This document shows, piece after piece, positions 6,125 to 27,037 of a DNA stretch of 64,000 nucleotides. The translations under genes were made by a program, and so were the position numbers. The notes under the pieces were generated by a model that was not told where the DNA came from, did not search any database, and saw nothing but the letters and a program-made list of their open reading frames with translations. Source of the DNA: Myxococcales bacterium (GTDB lineage: Bacteria; Myxococcota_A; Polyangia; Polyangiales; DASUME01); the NCBI GenBank assembly GCA_047601445.1, contig JASGJH010000001.1, positions 6,144,001 through 6,208,000 of the forward strand, given 5' to 3'. The stretch's first letter is position 1. Each line of letters begins with the position of its first letter.

Positions 6125-7532
6125 CTCGCTGCACCTGCTGTGCCTAGCGCTGGTCGTCGCTTGCGGCGACCCCGAGCCAAACCAAGAGGCCGCTCCGCTG
6201 CTCACCCGCGAGCAACTGATGGACCCCACCCAGTGCAAGGACTGCCACCCCAAGCACTATCGCGAGTGGGCCAGCAGCATGCACGCCTATGCCAGCACCG
6301 ACCCGGTGTTCTTGGCGATGAACCGCCGTGGTCAGCGTGAGACCCAGGGCGCGCTCGGCGACTTCTGCGTGCGCTGCCATGCACCCCTCGCAGTGCGCGA
6401 GGGACTCACCAAGGACGGCTTGAATCTGGCCGACGTGCCGAGCTCCATGCAGGGCGTGACCTGCTACTTCTGTCACAACACGAGCTCGGTTGGAAACCAC
6501 GCCAACAACGATCTGCAGCTGGCCGACGATCGAACCATGCGCGGCGGCATCACCGACCCCAAGCGCGCCGGGGCCCACGACTCCGCGTACTCGAACTACC
6601 ACGATCGCAATGCCGGCCAGAGCACGAGCCTGTGCGGGAGCTGCCACGACGTGGTGACGCCGAGCGGCGTGGCCCTCGAGCGCACCTTTCAGGAATACCA
6701 AGCCAGCTTGTTCGCCCATGAAGGTCCCGGCTTCGAGACTTGCTCCGGATGCCACATGCCGGGTCGCACGGGCCAAGCCGCGAGTGGCGGCCGCGTAGAC
6801 CGCGTGGTGCACGAGCACCTGTGGCCAGGCGTCGACTTGGCGCTGAGCGAGTTCCCTGATCGCGAGGCCCAGCGTCTTGCTGTGGAGTGCAACCTGGCGC
6901 TCAATGCACGCATCTTCTCGTTCAGTGTGGATGGCGTGGGCGGGGTTTCGATCAAGGTGGAGACTGCGGCCGGACACGCGCAGCCGAGCGGTGCCGCCCA
7001 GGACCGCAGGCTGTGGCTCGAGGTGGTGGCCTACGATGCGAACGACAAGGTGCTCTTCGAGAGCGGCACGCTGGAGGACGGCGAGCTCGAGGACAAGGCA
7101 CCCGAGGATCCCGGCTACGATCGCAACCTCGTGCTGTACCGCGAGTGGCTGTACGACGCACAGGGGCAGCCCGTGCACATGTTCTGGGAAACGGCGGTGT
7201 CGAGCGCGTATCCGTTGGGCTATTCGAGCCTAACGTTGCCTGCGGCGGCCCGACTCAACGAGGCGCATTCGCTGGAAGCCCGCTACCTGCTGCCCAACTA
7301 CGAGCAGGTCACGCGCATCACGGCGCGCTTGCGCATGCGTGCGGTGGGCATGGATGTGCTGCAGAGCCTGGTGGACTCCCAGGACCTCGATCCCGCCGTG
7401 CTCGCCGAGATGCCCACCTTCACGCTGCACGGTGCCAGTGCCGAGTGGACCAAGGCCGACGGAATGCTGCGCTCGTTGTGGCCCGAGGATCTGCGCTGTC
7501 CGGACGACTACCGGATGCTGCTCGGAGAGTGA
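6105..7532 (+). CDS. Pentaheme cytochrome c lipoprotein
   Basis: Five CxxCH motifs (CKDCH, CVRCH, CYFCH, CGSCH, CSGCH); lipobox LVVAC; EWASSMHAYA. Confidence 0.9.
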   Translation: MSASRNSSLHLLCLALVVACGDPEPNQEAAPLLTREQLMDPTQCKDCHPKHYREWASSMHAYASTDPVFLAMNRRGQRETQGALGDFCVRCHAPLAVREGLTKDGLNLADVPSSMQGVTCYFCHNTSSVGNHANNDLQLADDRTMRGGITDPKRAGAHDSAYSNYHDRNAGQSTSLCGSCHDVVTPSGVALERTFQEYQASLFAHEGPGFETCSGCHMPGRTGQAASGGRVDRVVHEHLWPGVDLALSEFPDREAQRLAVECNLALNARIFSFSVDGVGGVSIKVETAAGHAQPSGAAQDRRLWLEVVAYDANDKVLFESGTLEDGELEDKAPEDPGYDRNLVLYREWLYDAQGQPVHMFWETAVSSAYPLGYSSLTLPAAARLNEAHSLEARYLLPNYEQVTRITARLRMRAVGMDVLQSLVDSQDLDPAVLAEMPTFTLHGASAEWTKADGMLRSLWPEDLRCPDDYRMLLGE

Positions 7533-18085: not shown

Positions 18086-18272
18086 TGACTTCGCAGGGTA
18101 TCAAAGCGAAAGCGGTGCAGCCCAGCAAAGTGAACGAGCGAAATCCATCCCTTGCGCCTCCTCACCGATCTGTCCTGGAGGAACACGACACGCAATTGGG
18201 CTGAGTATCACAAAAGATTCGTGCGCGGTGCTTCCTTGACTGCCCAGGGTGGGAGCAACACCTTACGCTGCC

Positions 18273-19696
18273 GTGTCGAAGCCCAAAAAGACGATCCACT
18301 TTGTCTCGCTCGGATGTCCCAAGAACCGAGTCGATACCGAGGTCATGCTCGGCGTGGGTGCGGGTGAGGGCTTCAAGAATCGTGGCGGACCCCAGTCAGG
18401 CCGAAGTGATCGTCGTGAACACCTGCGGGTTCATCGGTCCGGCCAAGGAAGAGTCCATCGATACCATCCTGGAGATGGGCTCCTTCAAGGAGAGCGGCAG
18501 CTGCAAGAAGCTGGTGGTCTCGGGCTGCCTCTCGCAGCGCTATCCGGAAGAGCTCGCCAAGGAGATGCCCGAGGTGGACTACTTCTTGGGCTCGAGCGAC
18601 ATGCTCAAACTCGGCGATGTGCTGCGCGCCAACGAGAAGCACCCCCTGGAGCGCGTGCTGGTGGGCAACCCCGCGGATTACACCTTCCGCGCCACGGACC
18701 CGCGCCTGCCCTCCATGGCCACCCACAGCGCTTACGTGAAGATCGCCGAGGGTTGCTCGCGCAAGTGCAGCTTCTGCATCATCCCGAGTATGCGCGGCAC
18801 CCAGCGCTCGCGTCCGGTCGAGGACATCGTGAGCGAAGTGGAGCAGCTCGTCTCGCGCGGGACCCAGGAAATCAACCTGGTTTCCCAGGACACCATCTCC
18901 TACGGGCGCGACCTCAAGCAAGACGGGCGCAACCTGTCGCATCTGGTGCAGGCCCTGGGCGAGGTGAAGGGCCTCAAGTGGCTGCGCCTGTTCTATCTCT
19001 ATCCCGAGCGTCTCACCGAAGAGATCATCGAGCTGTTGGCGCACCACCCGAAGGTCCTGCCCTACGTGGACATGCCGCTGCAGCACGCCAGCGACCGCAT
19101 GCTCAAGCTCATGCGCCGCGGCCACGGGCCCGACCGCCAGCGCAAGCTGGTGGAGCGCATGCGCACCGAGATCCCGAACCTCACCTTCCGCACCGCTTTC
19201 ATCGTCGGCCATCCTGGGGAGACGGATGCGGACTTCGCGGAGCTGTGCGACTTCGTGAAGTGGGCCGAGTTCGACCGCGTGGGCGTGTTCAAGTACTCCC
19301 ACGAGGAAGGCACGCGCTCGGGGACGCTCGACGAGGAAGTCCCGAGCAAGACCATCGCCGCGCGCCATCGCAAGCTCATGCAGATCCAGCGCCCCATCAG
19401 CCGCAAGAAGATGCGCCGCATGGTGGGCAGCCGAGATCGAGGTCCTGGTGGAGGGCGTGAGCGACGAGAGCGAGTTCTTGCTCGAAGGTCGCCACGCGGG
19501 CCAGGCCCCGGACATCGACGGCAAGGTGTACCTCGCCAACGGGGAGGCCAAGCCCGGTGAGATCCGCAAGGCCATGGTGACCGACGCCGCCGACTACGAT
19601 CTCGTGGCGGACCTGCTGCCCCGCGAGGGGGGCGGACTCGACCGACCGCCGGGCGCCAAGCGGGTGCGCCTGCGCACGCTCAACGGGCAGGTCTGA
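18273..19696 (+). CDS. rimO: Ribosomal protein S12 methylthiotransferase, interrupted by two one-base insertions (~18378, ~19431)
   Basis: VSLGCPKNRVD, VNTCGFI, CSRKCSFC radical SAM motif, LFYLYP, TRAM-region QAPDIDGKVY spread over three consecutive ORFs. Confidence 0.9.
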
Positions 19697-19789
19697 GAGC
19701 GACCTCGTGCGCCCACGCCGGACCGGCCCTGTCCGTGAATGGCGCCAGGGCCATTCTCAACTAAGGTGGCTGCGGGGTACGAAACGACG

Positions 19790-20095
19790 ATGAATCCAGG
19801 CCAGCTCACGCTAGACAGCCGCATCCGGCCCTCCGACAAGACCTTGTTTCGCAACGTGGAAGGGGAGGCCGTGCTCCTCGGATTGAATGCGGGTTCCTAT
19901 TTCGGGCTCGACCCCGTGGGCACCCGCATGTGGGAGCTGATCGCCGAGCGCGGCCTCTTGCGGGACGTGGTGAGCGGCATCGTGGCCGAGTTCGAGGTCG
20001 ACGCGGCGCGCGTCGAAACCGACCTCCTTAAGCTGGTTTCCGCATTGCTGGAGAAGCAGCTGGTGGAGCTCGCTGGGTCCGGCCCGCATCCCTGA
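19790..20095 (+). CDS. PqqD-family RiPP recognition element (lasso B1/E-like)
   Basis: 101 aa; EGEAVLLGLNAGSYFGLDPVGTRMWELI...VETDLLKLVSALLEKQLV; 9 bp upstream of the cyclase. Confidence 0.9.
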   Translation: MNPGQLTLDSRIRPSDKTLFRNVEGEAVLLGLNAGSYFGLDPVGTRMWELIAERGLLRDVVSGIVAEFEVDAARVETDLLKLVSALLEKQLVELAGSGPHP

Positions 20096-22042: not shown

Positions 22043-22137
22043 CCCATTGCCGGGATTCCATCAAGATGTGAACGCCCGACGGGGGTCTGGCAACCAACAT
22101 CACGGGGCTGGAGCTCCCACGAACTTGGGGATGAATC

Positions 22138-22317
22138 GTGTCGAATCCGAACAACACCGTGCGCAAGTCCTACAGCGAGCCTCGTCTGGAAGAGTACGGT
22201 GCCCTGACCGATCTCACCCGCTCGTCGCTCTTGTCGATGAACAACCAAGAGAACCTGAAGACCCCCACCCAGTGTCAGATGCCGAACGGTGACCGGACCG
22301 GTCCCAAGCCCTGCTGA
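22138..22317 (+). CDS. Lasso-type RiPP precursor peptide, 59 aa: MSNPNNTVRKSYSEPRLEEYGALTDLTR-SSLLSMNNQENLKTPTQCQMPNGDRTGPKPC
   Basis: Translated by hand (not in the ORF track); GTG start after GGGGA RBS with an in-frame stop just upstream; exact YxxPxLxxxGxxxxxT leader motif; TGATG overlap with the next gene. Confidence 0.92.
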   Translation: MSNPNNTVRKSYSEPRLEEYGALTDLTRSSLLSMNNQENLKTPTQCQMPNGDRTGPKPC

Positions 22318-23477
22318 TGGGCGCGTACTCGCTCGGCTCCTACGCGAGCATGCTGGCGTGCCGTACCCGCATGCCCGCCTATTTCGAGGCGCTTGAACGC
22401 ACGGTCAAGCCGGGGTCCGTTGTCCTCGACCTCGGGGCCGGATTCGGATACTTCGCGCTGCTGGCCTGTCGCTTGGGCGCGGCCCGTGTGTACGCCATCG
22501 AGCCCGCTGAGTCGATCTCCGTGGCCGCCGAGCTGGCGCGCCTGAACGGCTTTGGCGATCGCATCGTTCCCATCCGTGATAGCTCGCGCAATGTGAAGCT
22601 CCCGGAGCGCGTCGATGTGATCGTCTCGGACATCCGCGGTGCGCTCCCGACCATCGGCGGTTCGCTGCGAACCCTGATCGACGCCCGCGATCGGTTGCTC
22701 GCTCCAGGCGGTACCTTGATTCCCTGGCGTGATCGTCTGTGGGTTGCCCCGATCGACGATCGCCCTCAGTGGCAGCGCTCGGTGCGCCCGTGGGCCGTGG
22801 TAGCCGAGGCGTTCGAGCCGGCTCGTGGGCTCAACCTGACGCCCGTCGAAGAGCGCCTGGTCCACTACACTCGCTCCAGCGAGCTGCTGATCGCGTCGTT
22901 CATGGCCACGCCTCAGATCTGGGCCGAGATCGACTATCACACGAACCAGAACACCGACGTCGAGGGCGCGGTGGAGTTCCAGATTGCGGAGCGCGGCACC
23001 GTCTACACCCTGGGCATCTGGTTCGACGCGGAGCTGATGGAAGGCATCCGCTACGCGTCGGGGCCGGAGCGCGGCACCGTGTATGCGAACATGAGCCTGC
23101 CGTTGAGCCAGCCGCTGAGCGTGCAGCCGGGCGACACACTGAAAGTTCGCCTTCTCTCCAGCGACATCGGTGGGACCTATCACCTGAGCTGGTGGACCTC
23201 CCTGATCCGCGGCGGACAAACGCTGAGCTCGTTTCAGCAGAGCGACTTCTTGTCGGAGCCGCTAGTGCTCGATCGCTTCAAGCAGCGTCTGCCCAACCAC
23301 ATGCCCAAGCTTGAGCGCCGCGCGGAGATCGTGCGGCAGATTCTGGATGGCGCTCACGCAGGGCTCAGCCTCGGGCAGATCGCAGCGAAGTTGATGGAGA
23401 ACTTCCCCGACCGTTTCGAGAGCACGACCGCCGCGCTGGAGCACGCCGCCAACGCTTTCGAGCTGTTCAACGGCTGA
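22317..23477 (+). CDS. Class I SAM methyltransferase with PRMT-like two-domain architecture
   Basis: MLxxxxRxxAY, VLDLGAGFG, VYAIE, LPERVDVIVSD, ARDRLLAPGGTLIP, GIWFD in a beta-barrel-like region. Confidence 0.8.
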   Translation: MGAYSLGSYASMLACRTRMPAYFEALERTVKPGSVVLDLGAGFGYFALLACRLGAARVYAIEPAESISVAAELARLNGFGDRIVPIRDSSRNVKLPERVDVIVSDIRGALPTIGGSLRTLIDARDRLLAPGGTLIPWRDRLWVAPIDDRPQWQRSVRPWAVVAEAFEPARGLNLTPVEERLVHYTRSSELLIASFMATPQIWAEIDYHTNQNTDVEGAVEFQIAERGTVYTLGIWFDAELMEGIRYASGPERGTVYANMSLPLSQPLSVQPGDTLKVRLLSSDIGGTYHLSWWTSLIRGGQTLSSFQQSDFLSEPLVLDRFKQRLPNHMPKLERRAEIVRQILDGAHAGLSLGQIAAKLMENFPDRFESTTAALEHAANAFELFNG

Positions 23478-23483
23478 CCGGTC

Positions 23484-24374
23484 ATGCCGACGTATTCGAT
23501 TCTGGGACTTCGGTTCGAGCTGCCCTGGAGCCTCGATCTGCCGGCAGTAGAGGAGCCGGCGGACTACCAGGTGACATTCGGCCCGGTCGAGGATGTTCCC
23601 GACGATCCTGCGATCGACTCGCCCTTGATGACGCGCAAGGGACGCGCGCTGGAGCTCTCCATGGGCGGCATCTGCCGCATGGTGGTGCCCGGCCAGGGCA
23701 CGCCCGCCCAGGTCGAGTGCTATCCCCACCGCGAGCAAAGCATCGAGGAGGTCAAGCGACAGGTCCTCGAGCACCTCATTCCGCGGCTGCTCTCACGGCA
23801 CTACCAGCTGGTGTTGCACGCGAGCTGTGCCGTGTTCGAGCACAATGCGCTCGGGTTCTTCGCTCGCTCGGGAAGCGGCAAGTCCACCATGGCGCTGGCG
23901 ATGGCGCGTGCGGGCGCCACGATTTTGGGCGACGACAGCCTGGTGCTCGATCGAGGTCCCGATGGCGCCATGGCGCGTGCGCTGTGGTCCACCGTGCGCG
24001 CCTTCAACGACAGCCTGAGCACCACGCTGGAGGTCGAGCGTCCCGACGCCGAGAGCAGCAAGATCGTGCTCACCCACGGTGAGGCGGCACGGCTTACTTT
24101 CGAGCGCGGGGCGCATCCGCTGAAGGCCCTGTATGCGCTCGAAGAGAGCGACGAGATCCGGATTCTGCCCATGAGTCCGCGCGAGGCCATGTTGGCGCTC
24201 CTGCGAGAGGCCTATCACCTCGAGTTCGACGACATGAAGGGCATGGCCGAACTGATGGCGCGAACCGAGCAACTCGGGCTCACGCGGCGCACCTTTCGGC
24301 TCGCCTATCCTCGCGATTTCGCGCGCCTGCCGGAGGTGGTCGCGCGCGTGCGCGCACATGCGGCGAGCTTGTAG
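23484..24374 (+). CDS. HPr-kinase-related P-loop kinase (lasso kinase-like)
   Basis: LHASC, Walker A RSGSGKST, LGDD signature; inside the RiPP operon. Confidence 0.8.
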   Translation: MPTYSILGLRFELPWSLDLPAVEEPADYQVTFGPVEDVPDDPAIDSPLMTRKGRALELSMGGICRMVVPGQGTPAQVECYPHREQSIEEVKRQVLEHLIPRLLSRHYQLVLHASCAVFEHNALGFFARSGSGKSTMALAMARAGATILGDDSLVLDRGPDGAMARALWSTVRAFNDSLSTTLEVERPDAESSKIVLTHGEAARLTFERGAHPLKALYALEESDEIRILPMSPREAMLALLREAYHLEFDDMKGMAELMARTEQLGLTRRTFRLAYPRDFARLPEVVARVRAHAASL

Positions 24375-24376
24375 CG

Positions 24377-26137
24377 ATGTCCCCCCTCTACGCCCGCGCT
24401 AGAGGCCTCCTGCTCCCACGCTGGCGGCTCGTGGTCCTCGCCATCGCTTTTGCCTTTCTGTCGGCCCTCACGGACGCGGGATTCGCGATCACAGCAGGCG
24501 GCGTGGCTGGCTGGCTGTTCGACAAAGCAGGCAGCCAGTCGTCGATTGTGGCGGCCTTCGGTGTCGATCGCGGCTTCGGCCTCGTCATGGGTCTCGGCCT
24601 GATCGCCGGCCTGCGTGCTCTCGGTACGCTCGGCGCGGCCTGGGTAACCGCGCGCCTGGGCTCGGAGATCGCCCACGAGCTACGTACGGAGCTCTACGAG
24701 CGCACGGCGTTGAATGCGCTGCCCCGGGTCCTGGCCCACCACCGCGGCGAAGTCGTCTCGCGGCTCCAGGACGACGTAGAGACCATTCAGGTAACACTCA
24801 CGTACTCCGTCACCGGCATCGCGCACACCGTGCTCTCCACGTTGATGGTGGGCAGTGTGATCTTGTCGATCGATCCCTGGGTCGGTCTCTCGTGTTTCGT
24901 GGGCGCCCCGCTGGCGGCGCTGGTGGTTCGTCTGGCGAACCGCCGCTTCTACGTGCTCTATGAGCAGCTTCGCCAGGACCACGGCATGCTCATGGGACGC
25001 ATCGAAGAGATCGTGGATGCGGGGGATGTGGTGCGCAGTCTGGGCGGCGAGCGCAGGGTCATCGAGCGCTTCACCAAGCTTTCGGAGCGCGTGAAACAGG
25101 CATCGCTAGAGGTTGCGCGCACGTCCGCTTTGACCAAGCCGATACTGTCCCTGGTGGGCGCCCTCGGCCTTGGTGTGCTGTTGGTCTATTGGAACTCGGG
25201 AAATGCGCCGGCTCCTGCCGAGCAAGCCGCGCTGTTGGCCGCTGCGGCCATCTTGATTCGCCCGCTCCATGCGGTGTCGCGCTGGTACGAGGTGGTGGCC
25301 TCGACACGCAGCTCGTTCCTGCGGGTGGACGAGATTCTGCAGACCCCACGAGTGGAGCTCGCTTCGGACGAACCCACGCAGCGACCGGATGCGCAAGCCT
25401 TGCGTGCTCGGGAACTGGCGTTCGCATTCGGGGAGACGTCGGTCTTCACAGGCGTGTCTTTCGAGCTCCGGCGCGGCCAAGTGCTGGCGGTGGTGGGCCC
25501 GAGCGGTAGCGGCAAGACCACCTTGCTCAGGCTCCTCACGGGCTCACTCGAGCCTGCGACGGGTAGCGTAGAGATCGACGGCAAAACTCGGGCGGACATG
25601 GAAATGCGCAGCTACCGCCGGCATTTTGCCTGGGTCCCCCAGGAAGCGCGCTTGTTGTTCGACAGCGTGGCCGAAAACCTGCGACTCGGTCGACCCGGGG
25701 CGAGCGACCTCGAGCTTAGCCAGGCCCTGCAAGCCGCCGACTTCCCGCTTTCGGCTCAGCACTTTCCGCAAGGCCTGGAGACCAAGATCGCCGACGACGG
25801 ATCGCCGTTTTCGGTCGGGCAACGACAGCGCTTGTGCATTGCTCGCGCGCTGCTCACGCAGGCGCCTTTCTTGGTGCTAGACGAGCCCACGGCTGCGCTC
25901 GACGAACGTACAGCCGAGGAACTCCACCGAACCCTGCTCGGGTTGCGCGAACGGTTGGGCGTGTGCCTCGCGACCCATCGCTTGAGCAGCGTAGAGCAGT
26001 GCGATTGGGTGGTCGTGCTCGAGGGAGGGCGGGTGGTCGAAGAAGGGCGCCCCGCAGATCTGCGCCAGCGTGGTGACCGCTTCCGTTCGCTGTTCGCTCA
26101 GGACATCGTGCGCCTGGAGGCGGGCAAGGTCGGCTGA
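24377..26137 (+). CDS. ABC exporter, fused permease and ATPase, no peptidase domain
   Basis: N-terminal TM helices; GPSGSGKT, VPQE, FSVGQRQR, LVLDEPT, THRL. Confidence 0.9.
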   Translation: MSPLYARARGLLLPRWRLVVLAIAFAFLSALTDAGFAITAGGVAGWLFDKAGSQSSIVAAFGVDRGFGLVMGLGLIAGLRALGTLGAAWVTARLGSEIAHELRTELYERTALNALPRVLAHHRGEVVSRLQDDVETIQVTLTYSVTGIAHTVLSTLMVGSVILSIDPWVGLSCFVGAPLAALVVRLANRRFYVLYEQLRQDHGMLMGRIEEIVDAGDVVRSLGGERRVIERFTKLSERVKQASLEVARTSALTKPILSLVGALGLGVLLVYWNSGNAPAPAEQAALLAAAAILIRPLHAVSRWYEVVASTRSSFLRVDEILQTPRVELASDEPTQRPDAQALRARELAFAFGETSVFTGVSFELRRGQVLAVVGPSGSGKTTLLRLLTGSLEPATGSVEIDGKTRADMEMRSYRRHFAWVPQEARLLFDSVAENLRLGRPGASDLELSQALQAADFPLSAQHFPQGLETKIADDGSPFSVGQRQRLCIARALLTQAPFLVLDEPTAALDERTAEELHRTLLGLRERLGVCLATHRLSSVEQCDWVVVLEGGRVVEEGRPADLRQRGDRFRSLFAQDIVRLEAGKVG

Positions 26138-26170: not shown

Positions 26171-27037
26171 TCAGGAGCCGATCAGCTCGAACTCGTTCTC
26201 ATCGTCGTGACTCTCTTGAGCATCGGCGGTGACCTGCGCACGGCGCTCGGCTCGCAGCTTGTTGACGCGGGCCACGTCGACCTTGAGTCGGGGCAATAGG
26301 GTCCGATTCACCAGCTCGAGCTTGGTCACCATGGGGCGCGTAAGTGGACGCTGCTTACGTACCATCTCGTAGAACTCTTCGAACACCGTGGCGATGCTCG
26401 CTTCTACGCTCGCGTTTTGGGCGCGCGCGCGCTGGGTCCGATGCTCCGGCCGCACTGCTTCCAGCGCGGCGCTGAGGTCCCCACCGCCAACGAACGAGAG
26501 CGCCTCACGCACGGTGCGCTCAGGCTCCTCGAGCATCGTGTCGTAGGCCCAGAGGCGGAGCGGGTACTTGCGGCGCAGACCGTCGACCAGCAGGCCGTAG
26601 TTGCAGGTCCACCACTCGAATACCGGGTCGAGTCGGGCCGGCGGCTCGAAGTTGGGGTGCTTCTGACGACGGGAGTCATCCTCCATCTTCCACATGCGTC
26701 GGCGCGACTCCTCGTACTCGCGGAAGTCGCGCATGCTGGCGATCACGCGTCCGAGGTAGCGCGGGTTCGTCCGCACCACGCCTGGCACGAAGATCTTCAC
26801 CACGTGCTTCTCGAACTGCGCGGGATCGAGCGCTCGACCCGTGGTCGGATCGAGCTCGGCCTTACCGTAGACCCCGCGCCGGAGCTTCGACTCGTAGAAC
26901 CCTTCCGGATTCGCCGCGCCGATGCTCTCCTTCCACTGACCAGGAAAGCGCTCGCCGAGATAGGGTAGCCCGGCCGCGATGAGGACTTGCATCCACATCG
27001 ACGTTCCAGAGCGTTTGGTGCCGGTGACCACGATCAC
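26171..27037 (-). CDS. Sulfotransferase-like P-loop protein
   Basis: N-terminal VTGTKRSGTS matches the 5'-PSB loop pattern GxxRSGTS; NPEGFYE; YDTMLEEP. Confidence 0.6.
   Translation of the reverse strand: MIVVTGTKRSGTSMWMQVLIAAGLPYLGERFPGQWKESIGAANPEGFYESKLRRGVYGKAELDPTTGRALDPAQFEKHVVKIFVPGVVRTNPRYLGRVIASMRDFREYEESRRRMWKMEDDSRRQKHPNFEPPARLDPVFEWWTCNYGLLVDGLRRKYPLRLWAYDTMLEEPERTVREALSFVGGGDLSAALEAVRPEHRTQRARAQNASVEASIATVFEEFYEMVRKQRPLTRPMVTKLELVNRTLLPRLKVDVARVNKLRAERRAQVTADAQESHDDENEFELIGS

Follow-up and report, generated by a model that had tools for sequence, protein, structure and literature searches.

A lasso peptide precursor from a Myxococcales bacterium with its only early acidic residue at core position 10

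Introduction

Lasso peptides have been characterised with rings of 7, 8 and 9 amino acids, according to the available text of a 2026 review (PMC13352647), and structure tools, LassoPred among them, are designed around this 7–9-residue range. The same text reports that changes in ring size usually lower yields, and that engineered fusilassin accepts rings of 7–10 residues, a point on which PMC8498205 and bioRxiv 2020.11.25.399105 agree in the parts available. Here we ask whether a ring of 10 residues is also encoded in nature. The question is raised by a small open reading frame (ORF) in a 64,000-nucleotide stretch of a Myxococcales genome (contig JASGJH010000001.1, positions 6,144,001 to 6,208,000; hereafter, the window), whose product has a lasso-type leader and a core with the first acidic residue at position 10.

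Results

The precursor gene and its cluster

The cluster consists of six full-length genes in the order RRE, cyclase, precursor, methyltransferase, HPr-type kinase and ABC exporter (Table 1). The start of the RRE was set at the ATG at 19790, the longest ORF beginning at 19739. In the cyclase, the SGGLDS and further motifs are intact, and its match to NF033535 falls below the curated cut-off of that family. The kinase translation shows His, GxGKS and DD motifs. Convergent with the exporter gene there is a 288-aa ORF (26171–27037, minus strand) with an N-terminal GTKRSGTS motif, presumably reminiscent of sulfotransferases; it gave no Pfam match and no homologue within the related lasso loci searched. 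A MYXO-CTERM protein, which would fit a myxobacterial host, is also encoded near the cluster.

Table 1. Features of the lasso locus and of two related loci of the same genome (window positions unless given as G000:C1, the host contig in kb)
Feature	Position	Strand	Details and evidence
RRE / PqqD-family leader-binding protein (B1)	19790..20095	+	PF05402 E 2e-13, NF033536 E 3e-14
Intact AsnB-like lasso cyclase (C) of 645 aa	20105..22042	+	NF033535 E 4e-89, PF00733
Putative RBS, GGGGA	22127..22131	+	Sequence; 6 nt 5' of GTG
Lasso precursor ORF	22138-22317	+	59 aa, GTG start
Leader peptide, 28 aa	22138..22221	+	Tyr-17 (22171), Pro-14, Leu-12, Gly-8, Thr-2 (22216-22218), Arg-1
Predicted macrolactam ring Ser1-Glu10, 32 atoms	22222..22251	+	Ring formation predicted
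Loop and tail, 21 aa	22252..22314	+	Cys18 (22273), Lys29 (22306), Cys31 (22312)
TGATG overlap of precursor stop and methyltransferase start	22315..22319	+	Stop 22315-22317, ATG 22317
PRMT-fold SAM-dependent methyltransferase, C-terminal three-helix domain	22317..23477	+	PDB profile, Foldseek
HPr-kinase-like peptide kinase	23484..24374	+	TIGR04352 E 1e-5
ABC exporter, fused permease/ATPase	24377..26137	+	PF00005 and PF00664
Second lasso cluster, with RRE, cyclase, precursor and kinase genes	G000:C1:6063.9-6067.5 kb		L047 7904-11496
ABC ATPase/permease/RRE/B2 satellite unit without cyclase	G000:C1:6391.9-6394.5 kb		L048 5867-8526

A first-pass annotation of the sequence had taken the ORF for a lasso precursor, and the leader register, the cluster context and a homologue described below all support this. 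It had placed a 31-residue core at 22222 with Thr at -2, as borne out by the translation (Thr27 and Arg28, then Ser29 as residue +1), and had correctly described Asn-Asn-Gln at positions 7–9, Glu10 as the first acid, and Cys18 and Cys31. The leader combines the YxxPxL motif with Thr at -2, as lasso leaders do; in the available text of PMC10368454, Tyr, Pro and Leu likewise stand at -17, -14 and -12. With this Tyr-17/Pro-14/Leu-12/Thr-2 register, the core's N-terminus is Ser1 and the sole early acceptor is Glu10 (22249), Asp24 being the only other acidic residue. Glu10 lies outside the 7–9 acceptor range, which is an observed range and not a chemical definition, and which the core would reach only with a shifted cleavage.

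The match to the lasso-leader family NF033521 reached 13.9 bits, under the 19-bit cut-off. Codon composition is that of the surroundings, with a GC3 of 0.82 for the precursor and 0.79–0.84 for the neighbouring genes, and an identical precursor protein has already been recorded in NCBI. A promoter and terminator scan at the locus gave nothing exceeding shuffled sequences. Since the ORF is flanked by a lasso cyclase gene on one side and tailoring genes on the other, and since a relative keeps Glu10 and both cysteines, it is more than a chance reading frame, and we regard it as almost certainly a genuine lasso peptide precursor.

A homologous precursor retains Glu10

Could Glu10 be an assembly artefact? 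The TGATG coupling of the precursor to the methyltransferase gene had been put forward against an indel. The coupling is present, but it is a weak argument alone, since rimO (18249-19696), upstream of the cluster in the same assembly, is split over three reading frames, so that the assembly does contain indels. The rimO frame breaks are probably long-read indels, and other broken genes of this assembly would call for caution. The matter is decided instead by a homologue. Against 1.84 billion representative sequences, phmmer gave four matches to the precursor: itself, P0245 (60 aa, E 6e-5) and two that were dropped as spurious, one being a kringle protein from a sea urchin and the other a repeat protein. 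A word-indexed search with the precursor returned only the query itself.

The alignment of homologous precursors that the first-pass annotation had suggested shows Glu10 and two cysteines retained in P0245. The leaders are near-identical and the core has diverged, with Ser1, Ser5, Glu10, Asn11, Thr16, a mid-tail Cys and the terminal KPC kept. The cysteines of P0245 are Cys19 and Cys28, and the mid-tail ones are not mutually aligned (18 in the window precursor, 19 in P0245). Retention of Glu10 and the terminal KPC rules out a sequencing or assembly error, so Glu10 is no artefact. The comparison of these two sequences points to selection on the acceptor spacing and the Cys pair.

Regarding close copies of the cluster, the cyclase query found none in 100 relatives or 400 genomes of the order (best about 36% identity), the methyltransferase query none in 400 genomes of the phylum (best about 42%), and the precursor profile none in 400 genomes of the class and 400 of other phyla, samples that overlap in part. 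A 10.8-kb ENA contig carries a methyltransferase fragment of 222 aa, apparently frameshifted (P0004); it is 75% identical to ours, so a close copy of the cluster exists elsewhere.

Acceptor position among methyltransferase-linked precursors

Loci were gathered around methyltransferase homologues, in sets of 10, 30 and the best 80 of 334 confirmed (47 with a detectable precursor), and also around cyclase homologues, one weak non-precursor match being excluded. They gave 71 distinct precursors, 63 of them methyltransferase-linked; the other 8 all have the acceptor at position 8. The sole acceptor of the 63 sampled methyltransferase-linked precursors is at position 10 in 17, at 9 in 28 and at 8 in 12, while five are ambiguous and one has no acceptor. 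Position-10 acceptors are therefore recurrent in methyltransferase-linked lasso clusters, which the first-pass annotation had not noticed. Among the 17, the window precursor has Glu and the other 16 have Asp; the other Glu acceptors of the gathered set are all at position 8 (8/8). When the 63 precursors were collapsed at 60% identity, the 51 remaining cores had Asp or Glu 13, 24 and 16 times at positions 8, 9 and 10, respectively, never at 11–12 and 0–2 times at positions 1–7.

The first residue of the core bears on the register. It is Ala, Gly, Asn, Ser or Thr in 31 of 31 position-8/9 cores and in 14 of 14 position-10 cores; with cleavage shifted in the latter, this would drop to 5/14 (by one, p 2e-6) or 8/14 (by two, p 4e-4), values to be read knowing that the residue set was picked after inspection of the data, that relatives are non-independent and that the search pattern itself includes the Thr anchor. 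This pattern argues against shifted cleavage in the sampled methyltransferase-linked family.

The share of position 10 depends on sampling, as the best 120 profile matches, mostly of one subfamily, had 110 acceptors at 9, nine at 8/9 and one at 10. Further searches added one Asp10 core and two Glu9 cores. A Glu9 precursor (L189) shares the Ser-Gly start of P0245 and has one residue fewer. A quick cyclase tree (43 rows, computed without bootstrap) has several starred clades in which Asp10 precursors are sister to Asp9 ones, the pattern that one-residue ring indels would be expected to give. In this tree the window cyclase sits on a long branch (1.91) that falls outside the Asp clade of 29 rows, so the Asp10 peptides are analogues of our precursor. 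At locus L136, an Asp10 precursor is accompanied by another precursor-like ORF (6817-6912), the core of which lacks acidic residues.

A remote B2 peptidase

No B2 leader peptidase gene is present within the cluster, an absence that the first-pass annotation had overlooked. The genome contains three RREs, two lasso cyclases and one B2 above the Pfam cut-off. This sole B2 (G000:C1:6394.0-6394.5 kb) lies about 228 kb downstream; it is intact, with the catalytic Cys and His present. A second lasso cluster, about 100 kb upstream of ours, is likewise without B2. Its precursor has a 34-aa core (Trp1...Glu8) with Cys at position 2 and a C-terminal His; the Y-to-T leader spacing is equal in both precursors of the genome, and the second has an ordinary Glu8. 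Cores related to the second precursor are present in genomes of the same genus. From this gene content we infer that one B2 probably serves both B2-less clusters. Our search of the literature, mostly outside subscription papers, found no paper on remote lasso peptidases. A missing B2 was also considered as a marker of position-10 precursors and rejected: among the loci gathered, many of them short, a B2 is close by at some Asp10 loci and absent at others.

The predicted complex of RRE, precursor and B2 scored 0.74, against 0.01 for the best control, the mark used being reached by 51 of 78 solved pairs and 2 of 108 mismatched ones. At least 58% of the contacts were common between runs, with a partner pLDDT of at least 78. 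In the model, Thr27 (Thr-2) contacts Cys91, Leu92, Ala125, His126 and Ala127 of B2, adjoining the catalytic Cys and His. Binding of B2 to the RRE and the precursor is thus supported by the model, which may pass by likeness to known complexes, B1/B2 being a textbook pair.

Ring size

Taken together, we consider a Ser1-Glu10 isopeptide bond likely. The first-pass annotation had offered either a 10-residue ring or a cleavage site shifted by one residue: the former is favoured by the register, the family statistics and the peptidase model, and the Ser-Glu9 shift keeps a minor share. An ordinary ring would arise if cleavage were shifted by one (Ser2-Glu10, 9 residues) or if one or two residues were trimmed (down to 8), in both cases giving a two-Cys lasso. 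Residue 2 is Ser in the window precursor and Gly in P0245, so a one-residue shift would lead to a canonical Ser/Gly1-Glu9 ring, and a ring of 9 or 8 residues retains some probability. Other Glu acceptors sit at 8 or 9, the conserved Ser is five residues before the acceptor like Ser3 of the Bradymonas Gly1-Asp8 type, and no natural 10-residue ring is characterised in the available text of PMC13352647. Our own literature search, largely among open-access main texts, likewise found none, and precursors of this kind may appear in RODEO or LassoPred tables.

However, the shift would leave Arg (by one) or Ser (by two) at -2, out of line with the Y-17/P-14/L-12 register. A shared B2 would also have to cleave the second precursor at the Thr-2 of that peptide, and the complex model places Thr27 at the B2 active site. 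Besides, the Asp10 family fits shifted registers poorly, and the cluster showed no aminopeptidase gene. On this balance, we judge an ordinary ring unlikely. The idea of Asn7, Asn8 or Gln9 as acceptor, taken from metanodin, was dropped, as the Asn of metanodin is residue 1.

Cysteines, threading and topology

Both Glu10 precursors have exactly two cysteines and none in the ring (Cys18 and Cys31; Cys19 and Cys28 in P0245), as in class IV lasso peptides, where the disulfide has to lie wholly inside the threaded tail (PMC13352647, available text). Going by sequence, the product is a candidate for class IV. Two-Cys cores are found in 1 of the 51 methyltransferase-linked cores (the window precursor only), and at least two Cys in 3 of the 8 unlinked ones. 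LassoPred counts 380 lassos with two Cys among 4749 predicted (in the text available), so the pair alone is not rare. The Cys18-Cys31 tail lock proposed by the first-pass annotation gains from the conservation of the pair in P0245 and loses from three precursors with similar leaders (L040, L043 and L203; Glu8, EYG leaders, ending in Lys...Cys-Leu), which keep only a single Cys near the C-terminus. The pair in both Glu10 peptides fits a stopper for a 32-atom ring. We deem a natural threaded 10-residue ring, whatever its disulfide arrangement, rather more probable than improbable.

The width of a 32-atom ring and a tail without an aromatic plug would suit a product that is not stably threaded, with lasso-type enzymes yielding a branched-cyclic or bicyclic RiPP closed by the Ser1-Glu10 macrolactam or by a Lys-to-acid bond via the conserved tail Lys. 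Lys or Arg is indeed in excess in the tail of methyltransferase-linked cores, being present in the last five residues of 41/51 against about 34% expected from background. But Lys is absent from residues 1–10, the genome provides leader, RRE, cyclase and a B2, the core is described as already threaded when the cyclase traps it (PMC13352647, available text), and a tail disulfide ring would block unthreading. An unthreaded product is in our opinion quite unlikely.

If the ring were instead threaded near the C-terminus with Lys29 as the plug, Cys18 would fall within the loop and Cys31 below the ring, and a Cys18-Cys31 disulfide would close a second ring through the first, giving a pretzelane ([1]catenane) and not a class IV peptide. 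The conserved terminal KPC, the near-C-terminal Lys as the main bulky tail residue of the methyltransferase-linked family, and loops known up to 20 aa (PMC13352647, available text) speak for it. Cys18/Cys19, however, lie 7–8 residues past the acceptor, about the whole post-ring length in the family (6–13), which fits a short loop and a Cys pair lying wholly below the ring, and a pretzelane is not among the four classes that the available text of the review describes. We hold this catenated product to be improbable, and equally so the combined claim of the widest lasso ring yet (32 atoms) in an encoded pretzelane outside classes I-IV, matured by a peptidase shared in trans. Finally, an inactive cluster or a product never cyclised, as the lack of its own B2 and the long-branched cyclase could suggest, is very improbable given six full-length genes with intact motifs, the occurrence in other samples of a conserved precursor and of a methyltransferase at 75% identity, and a B2 with catalytic Cys/His elsewhere in the genome.

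Tailoring enzymes

The methyltransferase matches PRMTs with E about 1e-45 (PDB profile) and about 1e-25 (Foldseek) and has their Rossmann and beta-barrel fold. The arginine-binding loops are altered, with SDLRG in the family versus SEWMG in PRMT2 and IYG versus THW; we take these motifs to be the double-E and THW loops of PRMTs. Its C-terminal domain gave a weak PqqD match (E 0.052) and no significant match in a fold search, so a fused RRE was not confirmed, and a leader-binding domain fused to the methyltransferase is only weakly suggested by the sequence. Our search of the literature, largely among open-access main texts, found no PRMT-type lasso enzyme described.

BsfK phosphorylates Ser3 of a Gly1-Asp8 core (PMC10368454, available text), and by analogy Ser5 is a candidate site for the kinase. 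The single near-terminal Cys of the three Glu8 precursors indicates that the terminal Cys may have another role, speculatively as a methylation site. Several other position-8 cores end in Met, and a C-terminal sulfur residue may be a modification site. An aromatic plug is found in 13 of the 51 methyltransferase-linked cores, whose ends are mostly Lys/Arg/Met-Thr/Ser motifs (L091-L170 precursors). Methylation or phosphorylation might create steric locks in these cores.

Discussion

Our preferred reading of the locus is a Ser1-Glu10 lasso with a class-IV-like Cys18-Cys31 tail disulfide, matured by a remote shared peptidase; as a whole it stands, in our judgement, at about an even chance. Under this reading, the RRE would bind the YxxPxL leader, and the kinase and the PRMT-fold methyltransferase would modify the linear precursor, with Ser5 phosphorylation and Lys29/Cys31 methylation as speculative candidates. 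The remote single B2 cysteine peptidase would cut after Thr(-2)-Arg(-1), and the divergent cyclase would adenylate Glu10 and couple it to the amine of Ser1, closing a 32-atom ring around the tail. After ABC export, Cys18 and Cys31 would oxidise and the resulting tail ring would be a covalent stopper in the manner of class IV. The monoisotopic mass computed for the 10-residue ring with the disulfide and without tailoring is 3368.54 Da.

Class IV peptides (pandonodin, LP2006 and felipeptins; available text of PMC13352647 and PMC9266682) share with this system a single Cys pair with both residues past the acceptor, a long core (33 aa in pandonodin, 31 aa here) and a cluster without a dedicated disulfide enzyme, whereas the acceptor at 10 instead of 7–9, the kinase and methyltransferase genes and the remote peptidase set ours apart. 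With ring-expanded fusilassin/fuscanodin it shares, as far as the sources available go, the Glu acceptor and the split B1/B2, and a 10-residue macrolactam is tolerated there; that ring was engineered from a native 9-residue one, while here it would be genome-encoded and kept in a homologue. By the 7–9 range, known natural rings compute to at most 29 atoms, against 32 here.

The split RRE/B2, the HPr-like kinase and the YxxPxL register recall paeninodin and pseudomycoidin (PMC9266682) and the Bradymonas bsf system (PMC10368454), both in their available text, and the target Ser of BsfK, five residues before the acceptor, takes the position of the conserved Ser5 (PMC10368454). Unlike in the kinase-type clusters of these sources, the core here lacks a C-terminal Ser and the cluster includes a PRMT-fold methyltransferase; in the bsf type the ring is Gly1-Asp8 and residue -2 is Ile, in contrast to Glu10 and Thr-2. 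The PRMT-fold enzyme also differs from the StspM/LasF O-methyltransferases and the PIMT aspartimide enzymes as described in the parts available. As with metanodin (PMC12670498, available text), the precursor was missed by automatic annotation, the ring feature is non-standard and the host is uncultured. Metanodin itself combines Asn1 with an Asp acceptor in a ring whose size its authors describe as expected, and this text offers no precedent for an Asn/Gln acceptor or a 10-residue ring.

With one B2 and two B2-less clusters in the genome, the window cluster expressed alone should fail. The precursor probably encodes a natural, genome-borne lasso ring of 10 residues, one beyond any natural ring solved, as read from its sequence and in the light of the parts of the literature available. 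If true, a sizeable group of precursors is currently mis-assigned, and the locus would make it possible to test directly whether a disulfide stopper or enzyme-made plugs keep a wide ring on its thread. Native closure of a 10-residue Glu ring would also provide a wider scaffold for lasso engineering.
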